DNA from: a virus
Lineage: Duplodnaviria > Caudoviricetes
Virus record (IMG/VR): IMGVR_UViG_3300032038_000021
Location: 32,001-96,000 of that record
Length of the DNA: 64,000 nt
Strand: one strand, 5' to 3'
Shown: piece by piece, positions 9,540-55,953 of the stretch
Position numbering within the stretch: the first letter of the stretch is position 1
How the letters are laid out: every line of letters begins with the position of its first letter
The notes under the pieces: generated by a model
Databases searched by the model: none
Seen by the model: only the letters and a program-made list of their open reading frames with translations
Told to the model about the DNA's origin: nothing
Program-made: the position numbers and the translations under genes

Positions 9540-9863
9540 TTATTTTCCAATCACTATTCCTACTTTCATTGAAAAATTATTATTCATCTCTTCATAATTC
9601 TTTAAGTTATATTTTTTATCGTGCTTATCTTCTAAAATAGCAGATCCAAATACTACTTGAAATTTTGCTATCAAATCTTTCTGTTCTTCTGTAAGATTAG
9701 AATAGAAATCGGATAGATAATCACGACACGCAAATCTTTCTCCGTTAATACTCCTTATATTTAAATCCGAATACTCTTTTCTAGTAACCTCAGTATTAAA
9801 TATTGATCCCATTTCATTACATGTATCATAATATCTTTTAAATGACTTCATTAAATCTTTCAT
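9540..9863 (-). CDS. Hypothetical protein, tandem paralog 3 of 3
   Basis: Shares LSDFYSxLTEEQK and YNLKNY motifs with neighbours. Confidence 0.8.
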   Translation of the reverse strand: MKDLMKSFKRYYDTCNEMGSIFNTEVTRKEYSDLNIRSINGERFACRDYLSDFYSNLTEEQKDLIAKFQVVFGSAILEDKHDKKYNLKNYEEMNNNFSMKVGIVIGK

Positions 9864-10171
9864 ATTTTATTTTTTATTACTCCTTTCATTGAAAAAGTCT
9901 TATTCAGCATAACATAATTCTTTAAGTTATACTCTTTGTCTTTTTTATCTTCTGCAAGAACAGATCCAAATAATACACGAAACTCTGCTATTAATTTTTT
10001 CTGTTCCTCTGTAAGTTGAGAATACCAATCAGATAGATAATTACGACATAAAAATCTTTCTCCTTTAATACTCTTTATATTTAAATCTTTATATTTCGCA
10101 TCATTCAATAAGCAATCAATTTCATTACGTGTATCACGAAATCTTTCAAATGACTTCATTAAATCTTCCAT
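9860..10171 (-). CDS. Hypothetical protein, tandem paralog 2 of 3
   Basis: Same motifs; overlaps both neighbours. Confidence 0.8.
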   Translation of the reverse strand: MEDLMKSFERFRDTRNEIDCLLNDAKYKDLNIKSIKGERFLCRNYLSDWYSQLTEEQKKLIAEFRVLFGSVLAEDKKDKEYNLKNYVMLNKTFSMKGVIKNKI

Positions 10172-10524
10172 TTTACTCCTCCTTTTATTGAAAATTTATT
10201 ATTCAACTCTTCATAGTTCTTTAAATTGTACTCTTTATCTTGATTATCTTCTGTAATAGCAGATCCTAATAACACATGAAACTTTGCTATAAATTTCTTC
10301 TGTTCTTCTGTAAGCTGAGAATAAAAATCTGATAAACATTTGCGGTATATAAATCCATCTCCATTAATACCCATTTCATTCAGATCGTCATACTCTTTTT
10401 TATTATATTCATTATTAAAAAAGTAAGTTATTTCATTATTTGTAGCATCATATCTTTTAAGCTCTTCCATTGCTATTTTATATTTTCTTACTCCTTCAAG
10501 TTCAGAAATACCAATAGTTACCAT
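10159..10524 (-). CDS. Hypothetical protein, tandem paralog 1 of 3
   Basis: Same motifs; AAAGGAG RBS; AATAATATACTATA early-promoter-like motif upstream. Confidence 0.8.
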   Translation of the reverse strand: MVTIGISELEGVRKYKIAMEELKRYDATNNEITYFFNNEYNKKEYDDLNEMGINGDGFIYRKCLSDFYSQLTEEQKKFIAKFHVLLGSAITEDNQDKEYNLKNYEELNNKFSIKGGVKWKI

Positions 10525-16083: not shown

Positions 16084-17781
16084 TTATTTGGTTTCATAAT
16101 AGCTCTCAAGGCTATTCTTGATCACGTTTCCTTCCGAGTCGAAGTTAAACTTTCTAACCTCAACTGAGAAGTATTCTGGCTTCACGTTGATTATCGTCGA
16201 TACGATGTTTATAAATAACTCTTTATAATCTGCAATAGATTTACATACAATAGCAGCAGAAGTCTTCCTTGCAGGGTTATGAGCATTCTCGTTACAAACG
16301 ATAATATACAGGCAGTTAGTGCTCTGCTCTATATCTTTCATTGTACTGCATTTATATCTATAGATATAATCACCAAACGTTCTATATATTGCAGACACTC
16401 CCACACCCACTTCTCTATAAGTAGGATATTTATTGACACTATAGGGCTGCACATTATATTTTCTAGTATCATTATTATAGTGCAAGCAACAAAGATTCAC
16501 TTTAAGTTCCTCACAGGCTTTAATAAACGATACAAGAGGGCTCTGAAGACCCGTACAATAAAGATTAACTGATTTGTTTGCTCTACCTTCAGAATCGAAC
16601 CTCAGATATTTCTTGAGGAAATCCTTACATATCTGAAGCTGCTTATCATAATCAAACATAGTCTCTTTGTCGAGACCATCTTCAAATACTCCTTTAACAG
16701 CAGGAGTAGAATGTCTTCCATCTACTAATACACATTCAAACACCGGAGATGCAGAAGTAATTCTGTTAATATTCTTATTATGCAGAATACTCCGCGTATA
16801 CATACCAGGTATACCAGGTTTTATATATGACTCTTCGATGATTTCAGTTTTAGCTTTCTCAACAATGGTATCAACAACAGGTTCTTCTGTTGTAACTTCT
16901 ACTGTATTTACTGTAGGTGCCGGTATTTCTTTTTCCGGCTCACGAATAGGGTCCTGAACCTTTTCTTCTACAGCAACAACTTCTTCTTTCTTTACAGCTG
17001 TTGTGCTGCTTTTATTATTAGAGGAAGCTTTATTTTTATTATTCTGTAGCTTGAGCCTCCTTGCCTTAGTTTTCTTTTTCACTTCCTCATCCTCCTCGTT
17101 CGGCCTGTTAATATCATTCTTCTTTTTCACGTTACTTACTGTATTCTGACTCACATTGGCAAGTTCAGCAATCTCGTACTGTGTTAATGATGTGGTTTTA
17201 AGATCGTTGATAATCCGATCAACAATCTCCTTCGGTATCTTATTTGAAGGAGAATAGCAGGCGTAGAAATTATGATCCATCTTTACATTTGTATATTCCT
17301 TCATATAAGAAATAAGCGACACTATAGATACAAAATATTTTTCTGCAAGTTTACTCAATTCAAATCTGGTAATATATCTAGTACCGTCAATTTCAGCAGT
17401 AGCAGCCTTCTCAATCTTATCCGCTATAAACAGCTTCTCGTCATCGGTGAAACGCTTCTTCTTATCCTGATCTTCTTTGGTACGAGTCCAGACAAATTTT
17501 GGTTCTACGTCGTTGTTTTTTACAACAGAATGAGGTTCTTCTTTTATTATCATATATTCATTTCCCATTGAATTTGCAGTTTCCACCGGCTGCTGTGTTT
17601 TGATAGAATTCTTCAACGCAATAATCCTACCTTTGTTTCTTTTGCTTATGGTTAATACCTGGGATATATCCACCCCATATTTCTTCGCCATATTTTTTAA
17701 CGAAGATAAACTGTTGTTATCAGACTCTGCGAGTGCCGATATGATACAATCTTGCAAACTCTTTGTCATTTCCTTGTACAT
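16084..17781 (-). CDS. Large hypothetical protein with an HTH-like segment
   Basis: 565 aa; TQYEIAELANVSQNTVSNVKK helix-turn-helix pattern; early-promoter-like motif upstream. Confidence 0.6.
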   Translation of the reverse strand: MYKEMTKSLQDCIISALAESDNNSLSSLKNMAKKYGVDISQVLTISKRNKGRIIALKNSIKTQQPVETANSMGNEYMIIKEEPHSVVKNNDVEPKFVWTRTKEDQDKKKRFTDDEKLFIADKIEKAATAEIDGTRYITRFELSKLAEKYFVSIVSLISYMKEYTNVKMDHNFYACYSPSNKIPKEIVDRIINDLKTTSLTQYEIAELANVSQNTVSNVKKKNDINRPNEEDEEVKKKTKARRLKLQNNKNKASSNNKSSTTAVKKEEVVAVEEKVQDPIREPEKEIPAPTVNTVEVTTEEPVVDTIVEKAKTEIIEESYIKPGIPGMYTRSILHNKNINRITSASPVFECVLVDGRHSTPAVKGVFEDGLDKETMFDYDKQLQICKDFLKKYLRFDSEGRANKSVNLYCTGLQSPLVSFIKACEELKVNLCCLHYNNDTRKYNVQPYSVNKYPTYREVGVGVSAIYRTFGDYIYRYKCSTMKDIEQSTNCLYIIVCNENAHNPARKTSAAIVCKSIADYKELFINIVSTIINVKPEYFSVEVRKFNFDSEGNVIKNSLESYYETK

Positions 17782-18016: not shown

Positions 18017-18332
18017 TTATCTTCCATATACGATAACACGAAGTAGTGTATTTCCACTTTCCATATAATACCTTACAAGCGAATTATTAAAAAATATATA
18101 TAGAACCGCAATAATTGTACTGGTGTCATCTATTACACCTAAATAACATGGTTTACCAATTATATATCTGCTAGTATATATAATTCCTCCACCAAATGGT
18201 TGACCGCTATTATCTCTACCATACAAAACCATAATATCTGATATATTGTCAGGAATAGTAACATCAACAGGTGTTCGAGAACTTGTAGTATTATCGTTAA
18301 TAACGATAAATTGTTTGTTTATTTTTTCATCA
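18017..18332 (-). CDS. Silent tip cassette 25
   Basis: DEKINKQFIVINDNTTSSRTPVDVTIP... in frame with track ORF 18017-18232. Confidence 0.7.
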
Positions 18333-18371
18333 TCTTCTAAATTTATATTATAAATAAGTTTTAGTTGTTAA

Positions 18372-18660
18372 TTATTGAAGAATTTTCCACGAATCCCATG
18401 TTTGAGGATTTCCAACTCTTCGCCTGAACCCTTGTGAATTTCCACCTATAATTAATTGTATTCTGAAAGTATCGAATTGTATAAGTACTCCGTACCATGG
18501 AGAAAATTTAGATGGAAAACTTGTATGAACAAATTCTGTGCTAGATCCTATAGCATAATAACCAACACCTATATCTGTATTATCTATATTACCGGAAAAA
18601 TAACCTCTATTTCTTAACGGATAGCTTGACAATTTACAATAATTATTATTCAAATCATCA
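18372..18660 (-). CDS. Silent tip cassette 24 (pyocin-knob-like)
   Basis: DDLNNNYCKL...GYYAIG...GVLIQF...WDSWKILQ*. Confidence 0.75.
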
Positions 18661-18678
18661 ATCGGTTGTAAAATTATA

Positions 18679-18964
18679 TTATGTTTTAGCAAGTACGTAC
18701 CAACTAGTAAAACTATTATTAAGTCTATATCTAAGCACAGTTTGATTAGTATATATTTGTATTTGTATTCCATAGTCTAATGTTCTACGATATGATATGA
18801 TAAAATGAATATTACCTTTTAAATGAGCATCAGTTTCATATTGACCGTGACTAAAGGAAATTGATCCAGTAGGTTGATTATTAAATAGATCGGCGCATGA
18901 ATATGATTCATTTAATAATATAGGTGAAAATGTACATTTACTACGAAACTGTGTAGCTTCATCA
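18679..18964 (-). CDS. Silent tip cassette 23 (no start codon; absent from ORF track)
   Basis: DEATQFRSKCTFSPILL...DYGIQIQIYTNQTVLRYRLNNSFTSWYVLAKT*. Confidence 0.75.
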
Positions 18965-18976
18965 ATCGATTAAAAA

Positions 18977-19277
18977 TTATAATTCTTTTACAGGCTGCCA
19001 AGTGCCACTAATTTTTGTTTGATAAAGTAATTTACTAGTATTATATCCAAAAACTAAACCAGCAGCATAATCACTAGTTGCAAATTTTTGCACTATACAA
19101 GTAAAATTTCCATATACAAATATTATACCTATATGTATTTTATTATCGTTATCTATACTATCTATAGCTGTAGATATAACATCTTTGATTTGATTAGTAT
19201 TTTTATAACTTAAATAAAACGAATTACCAATATAACTAGTTATTTTATTTAATTTCTCAATAGGACCATTTTCATCA
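18977..19277 (-). CDS. Silent tip cassette 22 (paralog of cassette 5; absent from ORF track)
   Basis: DENGPIEKLNKITSYIGNSF...DYAAGLVFGY...SGTWQPVKEL*. Confidence 0.8.
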
Positions 19278-19433
19278 AAACAATCGGCTCTAGGGTTAAT
19301 TCCCTAGAGCCGTTAAAATTGCTAAAAATAATCATATATTATATTTTAAATAAATAATAGGAAACTGGATTAAATTATAGAAAGGTGGTGATTATATAAG
19401 GATAAAAGAAATAGGAAATAGACAAGGAGGTGA

Positions 19434-19607
19434 ATGAGATTGATTTATCTTAATAAAGATCAAATAGATCAAGTTGTCCAGATTGCAAAGTCGATACGAC
19501 CTGATCTATTTCCTGATGGCAACCATATCATTGGGAGATCTTATAAAGATTTATTTGAAGTTTCTAATCTTTACAGAACTATCTGTAAAGATTTAGGATA
19601 CAGATAA
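19434..19607 (+). CDS. Small protein (57 aa) flanked by a 17-bp inverted repeat
   Basis: AAGGAGG RBS; MRLIYLNKDQIDQVVQIAKSIRPDLFPDGNHIIGRSYKDLFEVSNLYRTICKDLGYR*. Confidence 0.7.
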   Translation: MRLIYLNKDQIDQVVQIAKSIRPDLFPDGNHIIGRSYKDLFEVSNLYRTICKDLGYR

Positions 19608-19778
19608 TAAATCACAAAAACCCGTAGTAACAATCCAATCTTTTATCCTAATCTATTTCCTATTATTTATTTGTAAAAAGAAAAGTAAATATTAAATATT
19701 TACTTTTCTTTTTTATCTGTATAATAATTTATAATTACCTCTTTATATTTTATAGTTTTCTGATGCTTAGAATCTTAA

Positions 19779-20139
19779 TCATATTGATGCTGATATTGAT
19801 TGTATTGTATTTGGTACTTGCCCATATATAATACCTAACCAATGTGTATATTGAATGTTTGCTGTGATCTTTATAGTTTTATTTGTAATTGTAGCTGTAG
19901 GGGTGGGTGGATTGTTACCACTATCACCACCACCAATAAATATAATAGTCGGATTATTAGATCCAGAAAAGAAACATAAATACATATTAGCATTTAATAC
20001 TAATAATATTCCACCATAACAAGCATTAAAATCCCCTACAGTAATATTTACATATTTTTTATTTATATATGAAAATATTATAGATTTTCAGAAAAAAGTA
20101 GTATATGATAATTGATTTTTAATCTGTGTATTTTCATCA
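19779..20139 (-). pseudogene. Tip cassette 21 with one in-frame TGA
   Basis: DENTQIKNQLSYTTFF*KSIIFSY...NANMYLCFFSG... continues in frame into track ORF 19779-19985; stop at 20088-20090. Confidence 0.65.
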
Positions 20140-20190
20140 TAAGTCAGTGAAATATAAGTAGATTTGGTAACTCACTGTATATAAGGAGTC

Positions 20191-20650
20191 TTAGAAGCTA
20201 ATTTTAGCGAGTGGAACCACACCACGACTGAGATCCGTCTTGATGTTGTACAAGATATCCCCACTCTCAAGGACAACATATGCGTTAGAATCGTTATATT
20301 TAGTGCTTGTCCAATATGGAAATCCATTATTTCGCACATATTTATTTATCATATTGGCTTCACTTTGAGTTGGGATTTTACAATTCTCTACCCTAATATC
20401 ACTAGATTTAAGATATAAGACTACTGTCCAAGAACAGTTACAAGCATCAGACCAATTTAAACTATCCTCATTAAGTCCTTTATAATTATATTGTGTATCA
20501 TATTTTCTACTTCCAATTGTAAAGTCAGTTCCCAAAAACCATGCAGCGGATCCGGATCTATAAGCACAAATAAATTGCATAGATCCTTTTTGATTTCCAT
20601 TATATGAACCTCTTACAAATGTACCTACTTTTATATTATTCAAATCATCA
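20191..20650 (-). CDS. Silent tip cassette 20 (C-type-lectin/DGR-target-like C-terminus)
   Basis: DDLNNIKVGTF...IPTQSEA...YWTSTKYNDSNAYVVLESG...GVVPLAKISF*. Confidence 0.75.
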
Positions 20651-20727
20651 AAAAGTTGTACTTACACCTATATTTCGTATTTGAGTAGCTTCTCATAAAC
20701 TATATTGGAGTTTAATAATATAAAACT

Positions 20728-31523: not shown

Positions 31524-31996
31524 TTATTAAAGGTATTATAGATGAAGATTTTGTAAACTATAAGAAGTGTAGTACTACTATTATGATGCCTAATTGTTCT
31601 TTTAAGTGTGAAAAAGAATGTGGTAAATTGGTATGTCAGAATTCTAAGTTAGCAAAGTCTTCTAATATAGATATTTCTAATGATAGATTAATAAATAGAT
31701 ATAAGAATAATATTTATAGTGATAGTATAGTATTTCAAGGATTAGAACCTTTTGATAGTTGGGAAGATTTAATCTTATTAATTTCCGATTTTAGAAAAGC
31801 TGGTATAGAAGATGATATAGTAATCTATACTGGTTATAAAGAAGATGAGATAGAAGATAAAGTAGAACTGTTAAAAGTGTTTAATAATATTATAATTAAA
31901 TACGGTAGATATATTCCTGATAGTGAGAAAGTATATGACGAATTATTAGGAGTAGAATTAGCCAGTAAGAATCAATATGCTAAGAGAATAAGTTAA
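31520..31996 (+). CDS. nrdG: Anaerobic RNR activating enzyme (radical SAM)
   Basis: CSFKCEKECGKLVCQN cysteine cluster, GLEP, IYTGY, GRY, SKNQ; overlaps the nrdD stop. Confidence 0.9.
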   Translation: MIIKGIIDEDFVNYKKCSTTIMMPNCSFKCEKECGKLVCQNSKLAKSSNIDISNDRLINRYKNNIYSDSIVFQGLEPFDSWEDLILLISDFRKAGIEDDIVIYTGYKEDEIEDKVELLKVFNNIIIKYGRYIPDSEKVYDELLGVELASKNQYAKRIS

Positions 31997-32003
31997 AATA
32001 ATA

Positions 32004-32038
32004 TCCCCGTAGGAGTAAATTCCTACGGGGATATTTTT
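32004..32038. terminator. Bidirectional intrinsic terminator between nrdG and cassette 6
   Basis: ATCCCCGTAGGA-GTAAAT-TCCTACGGGGAT followed by a T run. Confidence 0.8.
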
Positions 32039-32041
32039 ATA

Positions 32042-32378
32042 TTATCTAAAAACATGACCTATAACTGCATAAGAATTGACACTTGATGTTGAACCACGGT
32101 ATCTTTTACAATAACATCTATAAGTACCACTATTTAAAATTCCTGTCACAGCTTCTATTGATAGAGTACTATTAGATTCACCATATAATTTGGATCTGAC
32201 ACTACCATCTAGATTGTCACAAATAGCTAATACTTCCGGACGACCCGAATTCCAATTAGTACTATATCGTATAAGTGCAACATTCGATAATTCAAATTCT
32301 ATTCCAATATATTCCATATTTTCACTTTGTGATATATATGTAGTAGTAGCCAAAGTTAAAAATATAATCCTATCATTA
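32042..32378 (-). CDS. Silent tip cassette 6 (variant core TAATGA)
   Basis: NDRIIFLTLATTTYISQ... in frame with track ORF 32042-32353; upstream flank aaccgat as in other cores. Confidence 0.7.
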
Positions 32379-32390
32379 ATCGGTTTAAAA

Positions 32391-32688
32391 TTATATTTCT
32401 CTTACAGCCTGCCAAGTGCCTGCAGCTTTTATTTGAAAAAGTATTTTATTATTACTATATCCAAAAACTAAACCAGAAGCATAATTACTATCTATAAATT
32501 TTTGTGCTAAACAAATATACCATCCAGATCTAAATATTTCACCTATATGTAATTTACCATCGTTATCTAAACTATCTATAACTGTAGGTATATGATCTTT
32601 AATTTGACCAGAGGTATAATTTAAAGAAAATGAATTACCAATATAATTAGTTATTTTATTTAATTTATTAATAGGACCATTTTCATCA
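32391..32688 (-). CDS. Silent tip cassette 5 (absent from ORF track)
   Basis: DENGPINKLNKITNYIGNSF...NYASGLVFGY...AGTWQAVREI*. Confidence 0.8.
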
Positions 32689-32714
32689 TGCTTGTTTGTA
32701 AATATAATTTTATA

Positions 32715-33087
32715 TTATAATCTTTTTAATGTAATTGTATATATGTAAGCATATACATTTATATTTGTACCAGAATTTTGAGATGCATAACATTCTATGA
32801 TTTCACCAACATCATAACGTTCTACTGTTATAAGTTGTTGATACATTACTTTTCCTTTTATTGAATTTATAATATTTGTTTGATCCCTTGCACCTCCTAC
32901 TGATCTTACAGCAATAAGTCTAGTTCCAGTATCATTCGCCGCCACCCAGTTTGCACCTCTTATTACTAAATATTGTGCATGTGTGTTCACCGTGACAGTT
33001 GCAACAAGTATTCTTGAATCATTTCCGGATATAGATGTTGCATTTGGAAGTGTACCATCAAAAGTTCCACGATATGAATTTTCATCA
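32715..33087 (-). CDS. Silent tip cassette 4 (possibly C1q/TNF-like beta-sandwich)
   Basis: DENSYRGTFDGTLPNATSISG... in frame with 32715-32990; contains GTRLI and ECYASQNSG. Confidence 0.75.
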
Positions 33088-33089
33088 TA

Positions 33090-33381
33090 TCAAACAGTTA
33101 TAAAAGCTATTTTATACCATGTATTCCAAGTTTTATTACTATCATCTCCGTCGCGTTTATATAAATTAGAACTTATCATTGTGATAATCATCTGTACAAT
33201 TTGGTTTGAAAGATATGATCTTAATATTAATAAAAAACAATAAGTACAATCTGTAGGTGTGTTTTGTATATGATCACAGATATAATAAATACCTGTAGAT
33301 ATATAATTGTTAGCATTTTCACTAGCTACAGGTATTCTATTGATAAGACCAGGTGTATTTTTCAATTGTGCAGCTTCATCA
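33090..33381 (-). CDS. Silent tip cassette 3 (pyocin-knob-like)
   Basis: DEAAQLKNTPG...NANNYISTGIY...IVQMI...WNTWYKI. Confidence 0.8.
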
Positions 33382-33427
33382 TAAAATATTATAGTAATTA
33401 TATTAAATTGATTTATAATTAGGTATA

Positions 33428-33716
33428 TTACAGTATATGAGCAGTAAATGTTCCAGTTTGTTCATATGCGTACGAACTATTTAACTTTAGTATATCACCT
33501 TTTCGTAATCCCACTATGTCATTTATCGTAGAATCTGCATTCGAAGTATATCCAGTACAGTTAAAATCTTTTCCATTGATTAAGTAATTTATATAAGGCC
33601 TGACCCCATTTGTAGTACGATTTGACATCCTTACAAAACAATCATATGGTGCTGTATAAGGCGAAGTTTTTAACTGTGTTGAAATATCTATATAACCATG
33701 CAATATATCTTCATCG
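33428..33716 (-). CDS. Silent tip cassette 2 (variant core CGATGA)
   Basis: DEDILHGYIDISTQLKTSPYTAPYD...LRKGDIL; in frame with 33428-33703. Confidence 0.75.
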
Positions 33717-33724
33717 ATCGGTTA

Positions 33725-33965
33725 TTATTTATAATAGATAAACGTATAATTATGGCTAGTCGTTATAGGATATAAAACATATATGGATATAATAGATTGC
33801 TGCACACTCCATATACAACAATCTCGATGTTCAGTTACGTAAAATAAATTAAATAAAGAACCTACAATATTCTCATCTCTTATTTGGTATTTATCACCAA
33901 CATTTAATGCTTTATCAAATGTACCATATTTATAATATGCTGTTACTTTATTAAACTTTTCATCA
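33725..33965 (-). CDS. Silent tip cassette 1 (no Met; absent from ORF track)
   Basis: DEKFNKVTAYYKYGTFDKALNVGDKY...YVLYPITTSHNYTFIYYK*. Confidence 0.75.
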
Positions 33966-33984
33966 AAACACTTTTATCAATATA

Positions 33985-34626
33985 TCAATTACTCCGCCTA
34001 TGTAAAACAGTAACTCTAACAATATTATTTGTAATTTTAGTACCATTACTAGTTTTCCATCCAAGATCAATAAAATAAGAATTACTACTATCAATGCTTA
34101 TAAATAAATTAAATAAAAATATTTTACTATCTGTTTTTGCGTGCCATCCTGCAATGGCAATAGGTTTATAACCACTAATCAAATCCATAGTTACAATCTC
34201 TTCATGTTCTATAAAAGTACCTACAGATTTAATATCTATGGTATTATAAATTAAATAGTTGGATTTCAAATCATCATTTAGTGTAGCAATTGCCTCAGCG
34301 TTCAGAGAGCAAGCACGACGAAGAGATCCGATAATAGATCCGAGCGTCTTACCGGTCGTAACGTTAGCAAGAGCTGCAGTAGCCGTACTAGAAGTATCAT
34401 CGTTAATACCACCGGTGATCTCAGTAGTAGCAATATCTCCGCCCATTGCATAAGGAAGAGAACCATAAGCAGTAACACCATCGCCCATCTTCATCTTACA
34501 AGTACCGGTTCCAACACCAGTATCGGGCAATTCTATAAACATTTCGCCTGCTGCAAGCACTGTAGAGGACTTAGTTCCGTTCATTGTAGAAGCTTTACCA
34601 CGTCTGGGCTTAAAAATCTTAGACAT
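33985..34626 (-). CDS. Receptor-binding/tail-fibre protein: constant Mtd-N-like N-terminus plus exchangeable tip (putative expression locus)
   Basis: KPRRG...VLAAGEMFIELPDTG...KMGDGVTAYGSLPY domain; junction AIATLN|DD at 34271-34276; composition drops sharply to AT-rich after the junction; AAGGAGG RBS and late-promoter motif at 34752-34763. Confidence 0.8.
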   Translation of the reverse strand: MSKIFKPRRGKASTMNGTKSSTVLAAGEMFIELPDTGVGTGTCKMKMGDGVTAYGSLPYAMGGDIATTEITGGINDDTSSTATAALANVTTGKTLGSIIGSLRRACSLNAEAIATLNDDLKSNYLIYNTIDIKSVGTFIEHEEIVTMDLISGYKPIAIAGWHAKTDSKIFLFNLFISIDSSNSYFIDLGWKTSNGTKITNNIVRVTVLHRRSN

Positions 34627-42830: not shown

Positions 42831-45800
42831 TTAATCTTCTGTAGTATCAGGTTCAACAGGAGTGGTAATTTTAATTCTTTCTGCATATATATCTGTAGAA
42901 TTATACTCTACATCAGGATCAGATTCTGCAGCTTTGGTAAATGTGCTATTATTTACAACATTTACTCTATCTATCTGACTATATGTTTTTCTGGAATATT
43001 CTCCTAATCGATAATTGTACGTAGATCCATTATAAGCATATTGAGTATCCCCGTCAGTATGATCAAGAATCTCATCGTCATCTTCACTACCATAATCGGC
43101 AATATCATCCAAATCGTCAGACTCTTCTCCATACTCGCCAACAGAAAGTATTTGTTTAACTCCTCCTTGCCTAGTAATCATAAAGTCTTTACTCATATTT
43201 ACAACAGATTCAGGATCTTCATCTTCCACATCTTCACTACCATAATTAGACAAATTAATAGTATAGATAGATCCGTCATTTCTAGTTACTATAATATCAT
43301 CTTCAATATCATCCCCAGCTAAACTGATATCTTTGATAAGATTATTATATCCTATAGTATTAAAACTAGCCCAAGTTCCATCTCCTCTAAGGAAGCTAAA
43401 CGTTCCAGCATTTGCTCTAGGAGTTATACCAGCTGATGCCGTAGATAAATTGGGTAATTGTCCCCAAGTTCCATTAGATCTAAGATAATAATTCGTACTA
43501 GCATTATTTGGAGATGGGACCAAACCATTATTACTAGTAGAAAATGTACTACTGATATTTGCGGTAAATGTAGTACCGTCACCACGAGTAATAATGAGCT
43601 GATTTGGATCAGCATCGCTCTTTACTATATTCTTTACATATCCATCTATCTGATTATCAGAAGTATCATATTTAGCTTTATTTACAGTACCATTAGTAAT
43701 AGCATCACTAATAGCCTTCCTTGTCATTGTACCATCTGTACTGGTACCAGTAGAAGAATAAATCTTTACTAATCCTTCACTACTACTGGTAGCACTACCA
43801 TAAGTAGTATTATTATCCTGGGTAGTAATAGTAAATGTAGATCCATCTCCTTTGGTAAATGTAACTGTTTTACCTGATACAGAAGCGTTCTTGATATAAG
43901 TGGTATTAATAGTATTACCACCACTATCCTTTGTAGCAGCTGCAGCAGTACCGCTAGTACTAAGCTTGCCATCTAACTGACTCTTAATGGCACTCTGTGT
44001 CATTGTACCATCGGTATTTGTACCAGTAGTAGTATATAATTTAGTTAATCCAGCAGCTGCCGTTGTACCAGTGCCGTAAGTAGTATTATTATCCTGAGTG
44101 GTGATACTAAACGTAGACCCATCACCCTTAGTAAAAGTAACAACCTTACCAGATACTTCAGCATTCTTAATATAAGTGGTATTAATGGTATTACCACCAC
44201 TATCTTTAGTAGCTGCAGTTGCGGTAGCAGTACTATTAAGTTTACCATCTAATGCAGATTTAATAGCATTCTGCGTCATAGAACCATCTGTATTTGTACC
44301 AGTACCAGTATAAAGCTTAGTTAATCCAGCACTAGTAGAAGTACCTATACTATAAGTACTATTATCATTCGTATCTTGAGTAATAATAGTAAATGTAGAG
44401 CCATCTCCTCTGGTAAATGTAACCACCCTACCATTTACACTAGCATTCTTTATATATGTAGAATCAATAACCTGATCTCTATTATCTTTATTTGCAGCAA
44501 CTGCTGTAGCAGTACTATTAAGCTTACCATTAATAAGAGTAGACAATTCACTTTGTCTAATAGTACCATTCGTATTTGTACCTGTTGTAGAATATAATCT
44601 GGTTAATCCAGAGTATGTAGAACTACCTACACTATATGTACTATTATCATTCGTATCTTGAGTAATAATATTAAACGTACTACCGTCACCTTTAGTGAAA
44701 GTAACTGTAGTTCCATCTATTTGAGCATTCTTAAGATATGTACTATCAATTACTTGATCTTTATTATCTTTTACAGCAGCTACTGCTGTAGCAGAAGATC
44801 CAAGTTTATTATCAGTAAGATCAGTAAGAATAGTAGATAATTCTTTCTGTCTAATAGTACCATCTGTATTAGTTCCGGTAGTAGTATATAATTTGGTTAA
44901 TCCTGTATTAGCAGTATTACCGGTAGCATAAGTAGTATTATTATCTTGGGTAGTAATAGTAAATGTAGATCCATCTCCTTTTGTAAAGGTAATTACTTTA
45001 CCATTAATACCAACACCACTGATATAAGTATTAGCAATATTATGATTATTACCGTCATTATTAGCAGCATAAGCAGTACCAACTGTACTAAGCTTACCGT
45101 TTAATAAATCTGTAAGATTCTTTTGATCTATACTACCATCTAAGTTATTCCCAGTACCACCATAGATCTTAGTTAATCCTAATGTGGTAGAAGTACCTTG
45201 AGCATACGTAGTATTATTCAGATCAAATTTGAAAGTAGATCCATTTCCTTTCTCCATTGTTATTCTATTAATATCACTGGAGAAGGTGGCTCCAACTAAA
45301 CCATTATTCTTTATACTTAATAATTCTTCTGATACTTTCTTCTGGGTGATTGATCCGTTTGTATTACTTCCAGTAGTACTATATAATTTTACTAATCCTT
45401 CTTTATTACTGTCTACAACAGCTTGAGCATATGTAGTATTATTATCCTGAGTAGTAACTTTGAAAGTAGAACCATTACCTCTAGTAAAGGTAACTGTAGT
45501 ACCAGATATTTGAGCATTCTTGATATAAGTATCAGATATATTTTGTCCTTCAGCGTCTGCTTTTGCTCTAACAGCTGTAGCTGTTGTGGCTAATTTGGTT
45601 TCTAATAAATCTGTTGTAGCTTTCTGATTAATAGCACCAACAGTACTACCTCCAGTACTAGGATAAAGCATTACAAAACCAGCAGAAGCAGAAGTAGCTA
45701 TTGTAGATTCATCTACCTTGGTATCCTGAGTAACAATACTAAACGTACTATTATCACCTCTAGTAAATGTAACTACTTGACCATTTACATTTACATTCTT

Positions 45801-46976
45801 AATGTACGTGGTATCTATCTGCTGGTCAGCACCATCATGAATAGCAGCTATAGCAGTATCTCCAACATTCATTTTACTATTAAACGCTGAATACAATGCT
45901 GCTTGTGTCATGGTACCGTCCATATTCACACCAAGAGAAGAATATAATTTTACTAATCCTAAATTACTAGCAGTAGCCTCAGAATATGTGGTATTGTTAT
46001 CTACAGTCTCTATATTAGTAGTATTCCCATTACCCCAAGTAATGGTAAAGACATGACCGTCTAGAGAATTCTGAGTGATAGACTTAATATAAGTATTAGC
46101 AATATTTTGACCTTTACCGTCAAATTCTGCACCATAAGCAGTAGCACCAGTAGACATTTTTCCATCCAAAGCTTGTTTAATAGCTTTTTGTGTCATGGTA
46201 CCATCTTCATTATTACCAGCTTCTTTATATAATCTGGTTAAACCTGCATAAGTAGAATTACCACCAGAATAAGTTGTATTATCATTAGTATCCTGAGTAC
46301 TAATGGAAAATGTAGATCCATCTCCTCTGGTAAAAGTTACAATTCTACCATTTGCTAATACGCTCTTTATATAGGTTTGATCTATCACATTACCTTTATC
46401 GTCAGCAACAGCTTGAGGAGCTTTACCATCCTTAGTAGATACTTTACCGGCTAATAATTCTGTTATTGCTTTCTGGGTAATTGTACCATCTGTATGATTA
46501 CCAGATACAGAATACAATTTAGATAATCCAGAATATGTAGAATTACCAGTAGAATATGTAGTATCTAAGTCTTGTGTATTTACAGAAAAGGTAGAACCAT
46601 TCGCTTTATAAAATATAATAGAATGGTTACCAGAAGATACAGCATTTGTAACAAACCCGACATTGCCAGGAGTTGCAGTTCCATCTGTTACATAAGTCCA
46701 GTTTAAATTTACTGGATCGTAGTGATATAACTGATTGGTACTGATCGCATAATATATTACGGGTTCAGGATTCTCAAGAGCAAAAATTTCAGTCTCAGTA
46801 TCATATATGACAATACCAGACAGAGGAATTCTTCTATCGTCTATATCTGCGTAAAATTCATCCGTATCCATACAGATATTTAGAGATCCGTTTTTAAAAG
46901 CTGATTTATTAAAATTGGCTTTCGAACCTCGTCGGAAAGAAAAATCCACATTATTAAGAAGAGTATTATCAGCCAT
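42831..46976 (-). CDS. Long Thr/Ser-rich repeat tail-fibre protein
   Basis: 1381 aa, about 11 copies of the YIKN..V.G..VTFT(K/R)GDGSTF...GL.KLY...DGT.TQ repeat. Confidence 0.8.
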   Translation of the reverse strand: MADNTLLNNVDFSFRRGSKANFNKSAFKNGSLNICMDTDEFYADIDDRRIPLSGIVIYDTETEIFALENPEPVIYYAISTNQLYHYDPVNLNWTYVTDGTATPGNVGFVTNAVSSGNHSIIFYKANGSTFSVNTQDLDTTYSTGNSTYSGLSKLYSVSGNHTDGTITQKAITELLAGKVSTKDGKAPQAVADDKGNVIDQTYIKSVLANGRIVTFTRGDGSTFSISTQDTNDNTTYSGGNSTYAGLTRLYKEAGNNEDGTMTQKAIKQALDGKMSTGATAYGAEFDGKGQNIANTYIKSITQNSLDGHVFTITWGNGNTTNIETVDNNTTYSEATASNLGLVKLYSSLGVNMDGTMTQAALYSAFNSKMNVGDTAIAAIHDGADQQIDTTYIKNVNVNGQVVTFTRGDNSTFSIVTQDTKVDESTIATSASAGFVMLYPSTGGSTVGAINQKATTDLLETKLATTATAVRAKADAEGQNISDTYIKNAQISGTTVTFTRGNGSTFKVTTQDNNTTYAQAVVDSNKEGLVKLYSTTGSNTNGSITQKKVSEELLSIKNNGLVGATFSSDINRITMEKGNGSTFKFDLNNTTYAQGTSTTLGLTKIYGGTGNNLDGSIDQKNLTDLLNGKLSTVGTAYAANNDGNNHNIANTYISGVGINGKVITFTKGDGSTFTITTQDNNTTYATGNTANTGLTKLYTTTGTNTDGTIRQKELSTILTDLTDNKLGSSATAVAAVKDNKDQVIDSTYLKNAQIDGTTVTFTKGDGSTFNIITQDTNDNSTYSVGSSTYSGLTRLYSTTGTNTNGTIRQSELSTLINGKLNSTATAVAANKDNRDQVIDSTYIKNASVNGRVVTFTRGDGSTFTIITQDTNDNSTYSIGTSTSAGLTKLYTGTGTNTDGSMTQNAIKSALDGKLNSTATATAATKDSGGNTINTTYIKNAEVSGKVVTFTKGDGSTFSITTQDNNTTYGTGTTAAAGLTKLYTTTGTNTDGTMTQSAIKSQLDGKLSTSGTAAAATKDSGGNTINTTYIKNASVSGKTVTFTKGDGSTFTITTQDNNTTYGSATSSSEGLVKIYSSTGTSTDGTMTRKAISDAITNGTVNKAKYDTSDNQIDGYVKNIVKSDADPNQLIITRGDGTTFTANISSTFSTSNNGLVPSPNNASTNYYLRSNGTWGQLPNLSTASAGITPRANAGTFSFLRGDGTWASFNTIGYNNLIKDISLAGDDIEDDIIVTRNDGSIYTINLSNYGSEDVEDEDPESVVNMSKDFMITRQGGVKQILSVGEYGEESDDLDDIADYGSEDDDEILDHTDGDTQYAYNGSTYNYRLGEYSRKTYSQIDRVNVVNNSTFTKAAESDPDVEYNSTDIYAERIKITTPVEPDTTED

Positions 46977-47099: not shown

Positions 47100-48185
47100 T
47101 TATAACTCACTATAATTGTCTAAATAATCTAAAAATTCCATTAATCCCATAGAAGGAATAGTTGGTCCTGTTGCTATAAAAGCTGATTTACTAACCTGAT
47201 AATATTCCCTAGCATTATTAGCAGCCAGTATATCATAAATGTCTTGATTAGTAAATCCAAATCTTTGTTTAATATTTATCAGTAAATCTTTAGCATATTC
47301 TAGATTTTTTCTAATATAATTCTTAGGATCTTTAAACATAAACGACTGTATATAGAAATAACAATAACAAAGAATATCTACTGTAGACTCTATACAATAT
47401 TCTTTACTAATATTATTCCTATCATAGAAATCAAAATATACATCCGCAGTAGAATGTATATAATCTTTAAATAGATGCTCTAAGAAGGTTCTATTACCAG
47501 CTTCTGTAGTATATTTATGACGGGTAATAGATGTAGGAACAGCATACCAAACGTAAGTATAAATATCTACCCCCATTGGATCTCTTCCTAAACAATTCAT
47601 AATAGAATTAGCTTGAGAGCATATATAAATATCTTCATGAGATCTTATATCTTTCTCATAATGCATATCAAACTGATCCCACATATTTATTTTATTATAG
47701 AATTTACCGTGAGTCCATCCAGTACATCCTTCAAATTTATTTATAATATTTCTTGTAGATTTCTCCATCTCTACAAAATTAGTAATAACGTAAAACTGTT
47801 CGTTATTATCTACAATAGCTTTCTTTACATCATTAAAAGTATCATAAACAAATTGATCGTCATGATCAGCAAACGTCATCCATACACCTTCAGCATATTC
47901 TGATCCTCTTTGTCTTGTATTTCCGGGACCAAAATTATAATCTGTTTGTACTCTCTTTATACAGATCTTATCTAAATATGGTTCCAATACATCGTCATAC
48001 GGTTCTGTAGAATGATCGTCTGATAATATCACTTCAATATCATCTCTCATATTTTGTCCAACAATAGAATCCAATAAAGTTGGTAGAAATTTTCCACTAT
48101 TATAACACGGTACTATTATACTGAAGAAAGGTTTATGTGGTAGTGTTATAGAAGGAGTACCATCGAATTTGTTTTCAGTATTCAT
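47100..48185 (-). CDS. Glycosyltransferase family 2 (GT-A fold)
   Basis: FSIIVPCYN, EVILSDDHS, GPGNTRQRG, FADHDD, HEDIY motifs. Confidence 0.9.
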   Translation of the reverse strand: MNTENKFDGTPSITLPHKPFFSIIVPCYNSGKFLPTLLDSIVGQNMRDDIEVILSDDHSTEPYDDVLEPYLDKICIKRVQTDYNFGPGNTRQRGSEYAEGVWMTFADHDDQFVYDTFNDVKKAIVDNNEQFYVITNFVEMEKSTRNIINKFEGCTGWTHGKFYNKINMWDQFDMHYEKDIRSHEDIYICSQANSIMNCLGRDPMGVDIYTYVWYAVPTSITRHKYTTEAGNRTFLEHLFKDYIHSTADVYFDFYDRNNISKEYCIESTVDILCYCYFYIQSFMFKDPKNYIRKNLEYAKDLLINIKQRFGFTNQDIYDILAANNAREYYQVSKSAFIATGPTIPSMGLMEFLDYLDNYSEL

Positions 48186-48287: not shown

Positions 48288-51200
48288 TCAACCTTCATCT
48301 CCGAAATCTATTAATACATTTGTACCAAGAGAATTTGAACTGGTACTATTATTAAGAACTTTAGCAGATGCAGCTGTACCACTTGTGCTAAGCTTACTGT
48401 CTAACTGACTCTTAATGGCTTTCTGTGTCATAGTACCATCTGTAGCAGTTCCAGTAGTAGTATAAAGCTTAGTTAAACCAGCAGTTGCTGTTGTACCAGT
48501 ACCATACGTAGTATTGGTATCCTGAGTAGTGATACTGAACGTAGATCCGTCACCCTTTGTAAAAGTGATAACCTTACCAGATACAGAAGCATTCTTGATA
48601 TAAGTTGTATTAATAGTATTACCACCACTATCCTTAGTTGCAGCCGCTGCTGTTGCGGTGCTGTTTAATTTACCATTAATAAGAGTAGATAATTCTTTCT
48701 GTCTAATAGTACCATCTGTAGCAGTTCCGGTAGTAGCATACAATTTAGTCAATCCAGTTGCTGCTGTTGTACCAGTAGCATAAGTGGTATTATTATCAGT
48801 ATCCTGAGTGGTAATAGTAAATGTACTTCCGTCACCCTTAGTGAAAGTAACCACTTTTCCAGATACACTAGCATTCTTAATATAAGTGGTATTAATGGTA
48901 TTTCCACCACTATCTTTTGTAGCTGCAGCAGCCGTACCACCAGTGCCAAGCTTACCATCTAATGCAGATTTGATAGCACTCTGCGTCATTGTACCGTCTG
49001 TATTAGATCCAGTACCAGTATATAATTTAGTTAATCCAGCACTAGTAGAAGTACCTGTAGAATATGTGGTATTGGTATCAGTATCTTGGGTGGTGATACT
49101 AAACGTGGAACCGTCACCCTTGGTGAAAGTAACCACCTTACCAGATACAGTCGCGTTCTTGATATATGTAGTAGTAATCTGCTGATTAGCACTATCCTTG
49201 GTAGCTTTGGTAGCAGCTGCTGCAGTAGCACTACTATTAAGCTTACCGTCTAATGCAGATTTAATAGCACTCTGTGTCATGGTACCATCTGTATTTGTAC
49301 CAGTAGCAGTATAAAGCTTGGTCAATCCAGCAGTTGCTGTTGTACCTGTAGAATATGTGGTATTAGTATTAGTATCTTGAGTTGTGATACTAAACGTAGA
49401 TCCATCTCCCTTGGTAAACGTGACAACCTTACCAGATACAGTCGCATTCTTAATATAGGTTGTAGTGATCTGCTGATCAGCACTATCCTTGGTAGCTGAA
49501 GCAACAGCACCATTAGTAATAGCACTCGTAATAGCACTCTGCGTCATTGTACCGTCTGTAGCAGTTCCAGTAGCATCATATAATTTAGTCAATCCAGCTG
49601 CTGCTGTTGTACCAGTACCATACGTGGTATTGCTATCTTGAGTAGTAATACTAAATGTAGAACCGTTACCCTTAGTAAACGTAACAGTTCTACCAGATGC
49701 AGAAGCAGTCTTAATATAAGTGGTATTGATAGTATTGCCACCACTATCCTTTGTGGCTGCAGTCGCAGTAGCACTACTATTTAATTTACCGTCTAATGCA
49801 GATTTGATAGCATTCTGTGTCATCGTACCATCTGTAGCAGTTCCAGTAGTGGTATATAATTTGGTCAAACCAGTAGCTGCAGTTGTACCTGTACCATAAG
49901 TGGTATTATTATCTTGAGTAGTGATACTGAACGTAGATCCATCAGCCTTGGTAAATGTAACAGTTCTACCAGATACAGAAGCATTTGTAATATTAGCATT
50001 TAAGATATCTGACAATTCCTTCTGTCTAATGGTACCATCGGTATTAGAACCGGTAGCAGCATATAATTTGGTTAATCCAGTTGCTGCCGTTGTACCAGTA
50101 CCATACGTAGTATTGGTATCCTGAGTAGTGATACTGAACGTAGATCCATCACCCTTAGTAAAGGTAACAGTTTTTCCACTAGCACTAGCATTCTTAATAT
50201 AAGTAGTATTAATCTGCTGATTAGCACTATCATTAGTAGCCTTAGTAGCAGCTGCAGCAGTACCGCCAGTACCAAGCTTACCGTCTAATGCAGATTTAAT
50301 AGCTTTTTGTGTCATGGTACCATCTGTATTTGTACCGGTGCCAGTATATAATTTAGTTAATCCAGCACTAGTAGAAGTACCTGTAGCATATGTGGTATTA
50401 TTATCTGTATCTTGAGTGGTGATAGTAAACGTAGAACCGTCACCTTTCGTAAAGGTAACTACCTTACCAGATACAGAAGCATTTACAATATTGGCATTTA
50501 ATATGTCGGTTAATTCCTTCTGTCTAATAGTACCGTCAGTATTAGCTCCAGTAGCAGCATACAGTTTGGTCAAACCTGTAGCTGCTGTTGTACCTGTAGC
50601 ATAAGTAGTATTATGGTCTGTATCCTGAGTAGTGATACTAAATGTAGATCCGTCACCTTTAGTAAACGTAACCACTTTACCAGCTACTGTAGCATTCTTG
50701 ATATACGTGGTATTGATTGTATTACCACCACTATCCTTTGTGGCTGCTGCTGCGGTACCACCAGTGCCAAGCTTACCATCTAATGCAGATTTGATAGCAT
50801 TTTGTGTCATTGTACCATCGGTATTAGTTCCGGTAGTAGTATATAATTTAGTCAATCCAGCAGCTGCCGTTGTACCAGTGCCGTAAGTAGTATTATTATC
50901 CTGAGTGGTGATACTAAACGTAGACCCATCAGCCTTAGTAAATGTAACAGTTCTACCAGATGCAGAAGCATTTGTAATATTAGCGTTTAAGATATCCGTC
51001 AGTTCCTTCTGTCTAATAGTACCGTCAGTATTAGCTCCAGTAGCAGCATACAGTTTGGTCAAACCTGTAGCTGCTGTTGTACCTGTAGCATAAGTAGTAT
51101 TATGGTCTGTATCCTGAGTAGTGATACTAAATGTAGATCCGTCACCCTTGGTGAAAGTAACCACCTTACCAGCTACTGTAGCATTCTTGATATACGTGGT

Positions 51201-54200
51201 GTTAATCTGCTGATTAGCACTATCATTAGTTGCTTTGGTAGCTGCAGCAGCAGTAGCACTACTATTAAGCTTACCGTCTAATGCAGATTTAATAGCACTC
51301 TGTGTCATGGTACCATCTGTAGCAGTTCCAGTGGAAGTATATAACTTGGTTAAACCAGCAGATGTTGATGTACCTGTAGCATATGTAGTATTATTATCGG
51401 TATCTTGAGTGGTAATGGTAAATGTAGACCCATCGCCCTTAGTAAAGGTAACCACCTTGCCAGATACAGACGCAGCTTTAATATAAGTAGTATTAATTAC
51501 ATTACCACCACCATCTTTTGTAGCTGCAGTTGCAGTAGCATCAGCATTCAATTTGCCGTCTAATGCAGACTTAATAGCAGATTGTGTCATCGTACCATCT
51601 GTATTGGCTCCAGTACCAGCATAAAGCTTAGTCAGTCCAGAAGATGTAGAAGTACCAGTTCCATAAGTGGTATTGCTATCCTGAGTAGTAATGCTAAACG
51701 TGGCTCCGTCACCCTTAGTAAAGGTAACAGTTCTTCCACTAGCACTAGCATTCTTGATATAAGTGGTATTAATCTGCTGATTAGCACTATCGTTGGTAGC
51801 CTTAGTTGCAGCTGCTGCAGTAGCACCACTATCAAGCTTACCGTCTAATGCAGATTTGATAGCAGCTTGTGTCATAGTACCGTCTGTAGCTGTTCCGGTA
51901 TTAGTATATAACTTGGTTAATCCAGCAGTTCCTGATGTACCAGTAGCATACGTGGTATTATTATCAGTATCTTGAGTTGTAATACTGAAAGTGGCTCCGT
52001 CACCTTTCGTAAACGTAACCACCTTACCAGATACGGTAGCATTCTTAATATAAGTGGTATTAATGGTATTTCCACCACTATCTTTAGCAGCTGCAGTAGC
52101 CGTTCCGCCAGTATTAAGCTTGCCGTCTAATGCAGACTTAATGGCGTTCTGCGTCATCGTACCGTCTGTAGCAGTTCCGGTACTAGTATAAAGCTTAGTC
52201 AATCCAGCAGAGGTAGAAGAACCAGTACCATAAGTGGTATTATTATCTTGAGTAGTGATACTAAACGTAGATCCGTCATTCTTAGTAAATGTAACAGTTC
52301 TACCAGATACAGAAGCGTTTACAATACCAGCATTCAAGATGTCGGTCAATTCCTTCTGTCTAATAGTACCGTCTGTATTAGCTCCAGTACCATCATACAG
52401 TTTAGTCAATCCTGTAGCTGCTGTTGTACCCGTACCATATGTGGTATTACTATCTTGAGTAGTAATACTAAACGTAGCTCCGTCACCCTTAGTAAAGGTA
52501 ACAGTTCTTCCATTAACACTAGCATTCTTAATATAAGTGCTATTGATAGTATTACCACCACTATCCTTAGTTGCAGAAGCGACAGCACCATTAGCGATAG
52601 CATTTGTAATAGCACTCTGTGTCATGGTACCATCGGTATTAGAACCAGTACCAGTATAAAGCTTAGTTAATCCAGAACTAGTAGAAGTACCAGTAGCATA
52701 TGTAGTGTTATTATCGGTATCCTGAGTCTCTATAGAGAAAGTAGACCCATCACCCTTAGTAAACGTTACTACTTTACCAGAAACTTCAGCATTCTTGATA
52801 TATGTAGTAGTAATCTGCTGATTAGCACTATCCTTGGTAGCTTTGGTAGCAGCTGCTGCAGTAGCACTACTATTAAGCTTACCGTCTAATGCAGATTTAA
52901 TAGCACTCTGTGTCATTGTGCCATCTGTGTTAGAACCAGTACCAGTATAAAGCTTAGTCAAACCAGCACTAGTAGAAGTACCTGTAGCGTAAGTAGTATT
53001 ATTATCTGTATCCTGAGTGGTGATAGTAAATGTACTTCCGTCACCCTTGGTAAACGTAACTACTTTACCAGAAACTTCAGCACTCTTTATATATGTAGAA
53101 TCAATAACCTGATCTTTATTATCTTTATTAGCAGCTGCTGCTGTAGCTGTACTATCAAGCTTACTATTAATAAGAGTAGATAATTCTTTCTGTCTAATAG
53201 TACCATCTGTATTAGTTCCAGTAGCAGCATACAGTTTTGTTAATCCGGTAGCTGCTGTTGTACCTGTAGCATACGTAGTATTGCTGTCTTGAGTACTAAT
53301 AGTAAACGTGCTATTATCACCCTTAGTAAATGTAACTGTTTTACCTGATACAGAAGCGTTCTTGATATAAGTGGTATTAATGGTATTACCACCACTATCC
53401 TTTGTAGCAGCTGCAGCAGTACCACTGGTGCTAAGCTTACCGTCTAATTGACTCTTAATGGCAGCTTGTGTCATTGTGCCATCTGTATTAGAACCAGTAC
53501 CGGTGTATAACTTGGTTAATCCAGCAACCGCTGTTGTACCAACTGCATAAGTAGTATTATTGTCTGTATCCTGAGTAGTGATACTAAATGTAGAGCCGTC
53601 ACCCTTGGTGAAAGTAACCACCTTACCAGCAACTGTAGCATTCTTGATATAAGTAGTATTAATCTGCTGATTAGCACTATCATTAGTAGCCTTAGTAGCA
53701 GCCACAGCAGTAGCATCAGCATTCAATTTACTATTAATAAGAGTAGATAATTCGCTTTGTCTAATAGTACCATCGGTATTTGTACCAGTTGTACTATAAA
53801 GCTTAGCCAATCCAGTTGCTGCTGTTGTACCAGTGCCATACGTGGTATTATTATCTTGAGTGGTGATACTGAACGTAGAACCGTCACCCTTGGTAAACGT
53901 AACTACTTTACCAGAAACTTCAGCATTCTTGATGTAAGTGGTATTAATGGTATTACCACCACTATCCTTTGTAGCAGAAGCAACAGCACCATTACTAATA
54001 GCACTTGTAATAGCACTTTGTGTCATGGTACCATCGGTATTAGAACCAGTACCAGTATAAAGCTTAGTCAAACCTGCAACTGCAGTTGTACCCGTAGCAT
54101 ATGTGGTATTACTATCCTGAGTACTAATAGAGAACGTACTACCATCTTTCTTAGTAAACGTAACAGTTCTACCAGATACAGAAGCGTTTACAATACCAGC

Positions 54201-55859: not shown

Positions 55860-55953
55860 AATGAAAAGCCTATCTCCTTTCCATCTGTTGTTTATACAAA
55901 AGGGTAGATGTATAAAATACATCTACCCAATATATTAAACTACAGATTTATTT

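Follow-up and report, generated by a model that had tools for sequence, protein, structure and literature searches.

What are two similar reading frames without start codons doing in the genome of a giant rumen phage, and why does their similarity begin and end at the same short word? We addressed this question for the stretches 18959-19277 and 32373-32688 of a 64,000-nt window, corresponding to bases 32001-96000 of the 118.9-kb IMG/VR virus record IMGVR_UViG_3300032038_000021. The record has a GC content of 31.5%, is rated about 48% complete by CheckV, and carries phiKZ-like markers, namely phiKZ_IP, a divergent family B polymerase and an S80/S77 prohead protease. A first-pass annotation made from the sequence alone had described the pair as an older duplicate whose similarity stops at both flanking cores, had taken the open frames as a sign of purifying selection and of occasional expression, and had taken the pair as support for long-range movement of cassettes as units.

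Our analysis indicates that the phage keeps about 25 start-less spare tips for one tail fibre, which open with the hexamer TGATGA (the 'core') except for at least two with degenerate cores, and that the pair is one tip family stored twice. The observation itself is confirmed. Its interpretation is only partly supported, since the movement of cassettes as units holds whereas the argument for purifying selection does not.

Similarity between the two cassettes ends at the hexamer

A repeat search of the window lists 18959-19193 and 32373-32607 at 81% identity (repeat family D20), and BLAST within the genome gives 82% over 319 nt (E 8e-86). At the protein level, the two stretches are 63% identical. 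We aligned both copies on the minus strand with about 80 nt of flanking sequence. Identity begins at the first T of TGATGAAAATGG, while the bases before it are unrelated (..GATTGTTT versus ..AACAAGCA). It continues through a frame of 99 codons in cassette 22 (c22) and 98 codons in cassette 5 (c5), which differ by one codon indel, then through the TAA stop and a 12-nt trailer (TTTTTAATCGAT versus TTTTAAACCGAT). It ends at the next core, after which the sequences are again unrelated. The first-pass annotation requires one correction here, as the core behind c5 is a one-base variant, TAATGA, rather than TGATGA. Because the hexamer occurs only 29 times in 118.9 kb, four breakpoints within 1 nt of it cannot be chance.

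Neither frame contains an ATG, GTG or TTG start that gives 60 aa or more, and each has an in-frame stop 9 codons upstream of its core. On its own strand, c22 is immediately preceded by a terminator-like hairpin. Both copies are silent in this genome. Selection on a fusion junction therefore cannot explain why their borders are exact, so the precision must come from the mechanism. The features of the locus are listed in Table 1.

Table 1. Features of the cassette locus and of other parts of the window (window positions unless stated otherwise).
Positions	Strand	Feature	Remarks
19272..19277	-	TGATGA core that opens c22	Left end of the similarity; frame GAT-GAA.. open for 99 codons
18980..19276	-	c22 coding frame, 99 codons, no start codon	Predicted tail-fibre knob-like tip
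18965..18979	-	TAA stop and 12-nt trailer (TTTTTAATCGAT)	Belongs to the copied unit; trailer conserved in c5 and in related contigs L032 and L037
18959..18964	-	Next TGATGA core, opens cassette 23	Right end of the similarity
19285..19312	-	Terminator-like hairpin, 11-bp stem	T-run runs into the core of c22; same hairpin context precedes the first copy in L037
32683..32688	-	TGATGA core that opens c5
32394..32687	-	c5 coding frame, 98 codons, no start codon	Found 99.9% and 99.2% identical in related contigs L030 and L031
32373..32393	-	Stop, 12-nt trailer and degenerate next core TAATGA (32378-32373)	Degenerate core heads cassette 6
33985..34626	-	Expressed tail-fibre gene, 213 aa	Constant stem is residues 1-117; core at 34276-34271 (..LN-DD-L..); resident tip 96 codons
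18017..34276	-	Cassette array	24 TGATGA sites (the master plus 23 cassettes) and at least 2 cassettes with degenerate cores; interleaved with nrdH/D/G, phoH, an XRE regulator and others
genome 5311-7671	-	Five more hexamer sites	Outside the window
about 33710-33721		Degenerate core CGATGA (near 33715)	Heads cassette 2 (P-I-D-E-D)
19779-20139		Decayed cassette (core at 20139)	Broken after 16 codons, continues in another frame (19779-20087)
about 21757-21793 and 32000-32035		Hairpins at the ends of units
16084-17781	-	565-aa protein with HTH motifs and an unassigned C-terminal half	At the far end of the array, on the cassette strand
42831-46976 and 48288-55922	-	Two giant genes (1381 and 2544 aa)	Built from more than 30 diverged repeats of about 207-291 nt
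47100-48185		Family 2 glycosyltransferase gene	Between the two giant genes
9540-10524		Three tandem paralogous small genes	Share a 287-nt unit that is 71-77% identical

The hexamer is confined to the fibre gene and the cassettes

To understand what the core is, we counted TGATGA in the whole record. It occurs 0 times on the plus strand and 29 times on the minus strand. By comparison, AGATGA occurs 66 and 102 times, CGATGA 37 and 51 times, and GGATGA 23 and 30 times. The maximal-order Markov expectation for TGATGA is 66 over both strands together, while base composition alone predicts about 40 per strand. All 29 sites lie at window 18332-34276 or at genome 5311-7671. One is located inside the fibre gene at the end of its stem, and each of the others heads a start-less frame, read T-GAT-GAW (Asp-Asp/Glu), that stays open for 66-152 codons. 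The single exception is the decayed site at 20139, whose counterpart in L032 (from 3334) is open as far as the contig goes. Information content is confined to W-TGATGA-W, with almost none outside the hexamer, which is unusual for known site-specific recombinases and speaks against the recombination reading given below. A subset of the trailers ends AAC(C)GAT just before the hexamer (for example at window 23949, 18660, 18964, 26157 and 24585, at L005:18430 and at L037:3766 and 4079), and other subsets end CCTTA or (G/C)TTT. This may be part of the site or a trace of common descent. If the hexamer is the recognition site, the two units headed by TAATGA and CGATGA may be locked in place.

The fibre gene is the only complete gene of the set. 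It encodes a short fibre with an Mtd_N-like N-terminus, lies downstream of large structural genes, and has a 289-aa Mtd_N protein as its immediate upstream neighbour. Within it the hexamer encodes the DD of ..ATLN-DD-LKS...

Two other reasons for the distribution of the hexamer were considered. Type III restriction avoidance could have accounted for the one-strand bias, but was rejected because the hexamer is also missing from the permitted strand outside the cassettes. A role as a promoter or leaderless start was rejected because the ATG inside the hexamer is out of frame and the variants described below are in DNA. Other hexamers are also strongly under-represented in the record: GCTAGC (0, 15 expected), GCAGTG/CACTGC (0, 12 expected), GGATCC (10, 43 expected) and GGTACC (38, 80 expected). 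This looks like restriction-site avoidance.

Hairpins at the ends of units, namely those upstream of c22, at about 21757-21793 and 32000-32035, at L030:100-135 and at L010:2025-2060, share a CCTAGG/CTAGGG stem and an AATTA-like loop. They look like a recurrent terminator element that marks block ends in the array.

Related phages carry other tips joined to the same stem

Next, we searched for relatives of the locus. The phage GenBank collection contained no close relatives, and IMG/VR, searched by the fibre protein and by a 17-nt stem/core pattern, gave 19 hits that were all chance matches with no fibre homology. In contrast, the fibre protein has 95 homologues in metagenome collections, most of which match only the first 56-62% of the query. 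In the closest ones, the match stops at LN-DD/DE and mutually unrelated tips follow. A 156.7-kb contig carries the identical fibre protein. Hereafter, L numbers denote contigs of related phages and P numbers denote proteins from these searches.

Several variants place the junction exactly at the core. P0004 has a stem 98% identical to ours and a tip 96.5% identical over 115 residues to the cassette that is silent here at 26879. L008 is 99.9% identical to window 36100-34271 (1830 nt) and diverges completely after the last base of the core, and L038 does the same at 98.4%, carrying another tip. L031 carries the last 111 nt of the stem (100% identical) joined at the core to the cassette that is silent here at 33087. 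It then runs colinear at 99.2% down to 28976, where the cassette 28981-28462 is missing exactly core-to-core. In L030, our resident tip is itself silent, preceded by the end of another gene and a hairpin. L032 shares flanks at 96.5-96.8% but has different cassettes between the same cores. Cassettes are present, absent or replaced hexamer-to-hexamer.

These variant junctions come from assembled metagenome contigs, not from reads. Assemblers need k-mers far longer than 6-7 nt, so the hexamer cannot create the joins as artefacts, although they still need confirmation at read level. Short contigs that carry the fibre gene (L008, L009, L038 and the P0004 contig) tend to end within 60-240 nt after the tip, which is what an assembler would do if the DNA behind the tip varies within the sample.

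The confinement of the hexamer also holds in about 82 kb from relatives. Every hexamer is on the fibre strand and, wherever the frame was examined, lies at the stem/tip junction of the fibre gene or at a cassette start. None is on the other strand, where about 28 are expected. L005, from a 296-kb rumen relative, has 14 hexamers in 20.6 kb, all at its fibre gene and 13 cassettes, while L006 and L007 have only the fibre-gene site in 19 kb.

A possible alternative is that there is no dedicated machinery, and that ordinary homologous or microhomology-mediated recombination between mosaic phages produces breaks that appear at the hexamer only because it encodes a conserved Asp-Asp/Glu at a domain border where fusions remain functional. 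Tail-fibre genes are classic mosaics that break at domain borders, and a stem 99.9% identical followed by an unrelated tip is also what a crossover anywhere in the stem would give. The lack of a detected recombinase in the half-complete record is likewise in its favour. However, this reading cannot explain the total absence of TGATGA from both strands of the rest of the genome and of relatives, the exact hexamer borders between silent cassettes where no function is selected, or the 1.2-kb join in L031, where only 6-7 nt are shared. We therefore consider it unlikely.

Joining of tips to the stem at the RNA or translation level (splicing or ribosome hopping), or expression of each tip as its own gene, is very unlikely. 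All cassettes do lie on the strand of the fibre gene, but the variants are in DNA, a terminator hairpin sits directly upstream of c22, genes on the opposite strand with terminators interrupt the array, no start codon is present, and the ATG inside the hexamer is out of frame.

The tip family occupies other slots in related phages

Four more copies of the c5/c22 family, 78-84% identical in DNA, occur in three further contexts: directly behind the fibre gene in L010, in the slot of our cassette 21049 in L032 (with flanks 96.5% identical up to the core), and twice in tandem in L037, the first copy of which (L037a) also shares the hairpin upstream of c22. These copies are bounded by the hexamer, except that in L010 the core at the end of the unit is replaced by a terminator hairpin. 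In four of the six DNA copies, including the two in this window, the unit ends with the same trailer, TAATTTT(T)AA(C)CGAT or a one-base variant of it, followed by a core; L037a was left out of this comparison of unit ends. Cassettes therefore do move as units, as the first-pass annotation had proposed.

Whether the pair arose by duplication within this genome is less certain. The tree of the six DNA copies is a star: c22 and c5 are 81.6% identical, c22 and L037a 83.0%, and c5 and L032 82.0%, and no clade of c22 plus c5 is supported. The two copies are no closer to each other than to copies in other phages, and 'duplicate' should be read as two members of one mobile cassette family. It remains possible, though tentative, that each was captured separately from related phages by the same core-to-core exchange during co-infection. 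The shared hairpin context of L037a indicates that the c22 slot is old. With only six DNA copies and an unresolved tree, an ancient in-genome copy and separate capture cannot be told apart, and the choice does not change what the unit is or where it breaks.

No contig or protein showed a c5/c22-type tip fused to the stem; such a fusion was absent among the 95 stem homologues and in a search of longer proteins. Expression is shown for other cassettes of the library but not for this tip family.

Amino-acid changes cluster on a conserved scaffold

To test the claim of purifying selection, we compared c22 and c5 over 98 aligned codons. We counted 4.7 synonymous differences over 58.0 sites (pS 0.080) and 48.3 nonsynonymous differences over 236.0 sites (pN 0.205), giving a pN/pS of 2.55 and an NG86 dN/dS of 2.8. 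Differences by codon position 1/2/3 are 21/25/7, so that third positions are the most conserved. The ratio is therefore not below 1, although NG86 pS is uncertain at a GC3 of 6-10%. We then simulated 53 neutral substitutions with AT-biased mutation. The frame stays open in 8.4% of runs, so open frames in this pair alone prove little. Seven or fewer third-position changes occur in 0.8% of runs, and a pN/pS of 2.55 or more occurs in 1.2% of the runs that stay open (neutral 95th percentile 1.85). The nonsynonymous excess is thus unlikely under neutrality (P about 0.01).

All six pairs of the first four DNA copies of the family give a pN/pS of 1.2-2.6. Nonsynonymous changes are clustered in about half of the codons: 48 codons are unchanged at positions 1 and 2, against 37 expected (P 1.5e-4), and an invariant scaffold remains, with motifs such as DS.D.D, QK and GLVFGY. 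Taken together, the pattern is not the purifying selection originally proposed but a conserved scaffold with diversifying positions, which still indicates selection on the protein.

These results bear on two further readings. The first is that the cassettes are dead remnants of former tips that pile up behind the fibre gene and are never used again. Some decay is visible, in the broken cassette at 20139 and the two degenerate cores, and the other pair in the array, 26879/28981, gives a pN/pS of 1.0. On the other hand, all but one of the cassette frames behind a hexamer are open at 28-31% GC, silent cassettes of this genome are found fused to the stem in near-identical phages, and third codon positions are conserved with clustered nonsynonymous changes, which makes this reading very unlikely. 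The second is that the differences were written by a diversity-generating retroelement (DGR) through mutagenic retrohoming. Changes do fall mainly on codon positions 1 and 2, as in DGR variable regions. However, a search of the record with RVT_1 found no reverse transcriptase, 16 of the 53 differences involve no adenine in either copy, A<->G changes are symmetric, and the differences spread over the whole frame rather than one variable region. We regard a DGR as highly improbable.

The cassette is predicted to encode a knob-like tip

With a 17-sequence alignment, AlphaFold2 gives a model of c22 with pLDDT 94 and pTM 0.82, consisting of an N-terminal helix, which would continue the coiled coil of the stem, followed by a compact beta domain. 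Foldseek hits are weak (E 0.02 in the PDB, 1e-4 in BFVD; TM about 0.45-0.69), but the leading rows in both libraries are mostly fibre or receptor-binding proteins: R2 and R1 pyocin fibres, phage K gp144, the phi812 baseplate and the Mu fibre in the PDB, and tail fibres and baseplate proteins in BFVD. Sequence relatives end the complete proteins P0112, P0109 and P0100, whereas no Pfam family matches. These features fit the functional class of phage tail-fibre receptor-binding tips.

No known recombinase was found in the record

We searched the record for the families Phage_integrase, Resolvase, RVT_1, Y1_Tnp, the TnpB Zn-ribbon, IS110 and HNH and found no recombinase, transposase, HNH nuclease or reverse transcriptase of a known Pfam family. 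The only Resolvase match is 12 bits, inside a repeat protein. About 70 ORFs scanned with Pfam or PHROGs gave only phiKZ-like and housekeeping hits, and the ORFs around the array have no recombinase family. Because the record is only about 48% complete, this is weak evidence against a dedicated enzyme. The 565-aa HTH protein at the end of the array was considered as a candidate, but gave only weak HTH hits and uninformative ESM Atlas neighbours, and could not be linked to the switching.

A library of silent tips probably exchanged at TGATGA

Our preferred explanation, which we hold with good confidence, is that both stretches are copies of one family of receptor-binding tip, about 98 codons long with a predicted knob-like fold, in a library of silent, start-less tip cassettes of a phiKZ-like rumen jumbo phage, and that these tips are exchanged by DNA recombination at TGATGA. 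The analysis demonstrates that recombinant DNA joints lie at the hexamer, that the copied unit (tip frame, stop and short trailer) runs from one core to the next even between silent positions, that in nearly identical phages from rumen metagenomes the stem is joined at the hexamer to other tips, including a cassette that is silent here, and that the hexamer has been purged from the rest of the genome. What we infer from this is a hexamer-specific DNA recombination activity, joining any two cores and frequent enough that any stray site is costly; the receptor-binding role of the tips is likewise inferred, from predicted structure and sequence.

All cores are direct repeats. Recombination within one molecule would therefore delete the DNA between the stem and a distal cassette, and L031 looks like this. 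Recombination between genome copies, or re-insertion of an excised unit, would copy or move a unit, which would account for c22/c5, for 26879/28981 and for the slot changes in L032. In this view, the c22/c5 pair is an old product of the second route, or of capture from a related phage by the same route. While a tip is fused to the stem it is exposed to selection, which would explain the excess of amino-acid changes in some codons on a conserved scaffold.

A more far-reaching hypothesis, which we consider about as likely as not, is that a clade of rumen and gut jumbo phages uses an undescribed recombination activity that recognizes only TGATGA, fuses any of some 25 stored tips in frame to one tail-fibre stem, and moves the stored units around the genome. 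The activity would be potent enough that the phage has purged the hexamer from both strands of all its other DNA. This would be a deletional and insertional (V(D)J- or integron-like) rather than inversional host-range switch, run by an enzyme of no known recombinase family.

Host range is the main limit on what a phage can do in nature and in therapy, and known programmed switches (Gin, Cin, Min, Rin and DGRs) offer a few alternatives or point diversity. A library of about 25 unrelated tips exchanged at a six-base word would be a much larger and more modular repertoire, with a direct-repeat logic that is not known from phages, and would point to a very short-site recombination activity of possible use as a tool. 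The c22/c5 pair is a small but clean piece of evidence for such a system: its exact borders between silent copies show the mechanism rather than selection on a working fusion, and its pattern of change shows that stored tips have been under protein-level selection. The mechanism is only partly resolved.

Comparison with known systems

Literature searches found no description of a TGATGA-keyed system or of a silent or direct-repeat tip library, and a crAss-like phage paper that came up concerns DGRs only. We therefore compared the locus with the closest known systems. Silent-cassette antigenic variation (Neisseria pilE/pilS, Borrelia vlsE, yeast MAT/HML/HMR) likewise has one expression site and many start-less silent copies, with diversifying selection on the variable part. 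Those systems copy donor sequence by homologous recombination through long conserved flanks. Here, the flanks of the cassettes and of the stem are unrelated outside the hexamer, and at least one variant (L031) looks like a deletion rather than a conversion.

Integrons (IntI, attI/attC gene cassettes) share an array of promoterless cassettes in one orientation, units that move as site-to-site modules, and a position next to the expression point that decides what is expressed. No integrase was found in the record, however, whereas integrons need the IntI tyrosine recombinase. Integron cassettes are whole genes with their own start codons and a structured attC of 60-140 bp, while here the cassettes are gene halves fused in frame and the site is a bare hexamer.

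The closest system is the Rin shufflon of Bifidobacterium prophages (Mavrich et al. 2018, PMC6109161), together with Min of p15B, Gin of Mu and Cin of P1. As in the present locus, one constant N-terminal part of a receptor-binding protein is combined with several alternative, start-less C-terminal segments, joined in frame at a short repeated site (rix, 11 bp) that is rare elsewhere in the genome. Rin, Min, Gin and Cin work by inversion between inverted sites, inside one compact locus, next to their own tyrosine or serine invertase. Here no invertase was found in the half-complete record, the site is only 6 bp, and all 29 sites, like all those in the relatives, lie on one strand as direct repeats. 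They spread over 16 kb plus a second cluster about 43 kb beyond the far end of the array (about 59 kb from the fibre gene), with housekeeping genes interleaved, and the variants seen are deletions, insertions and replacements, not inversions.
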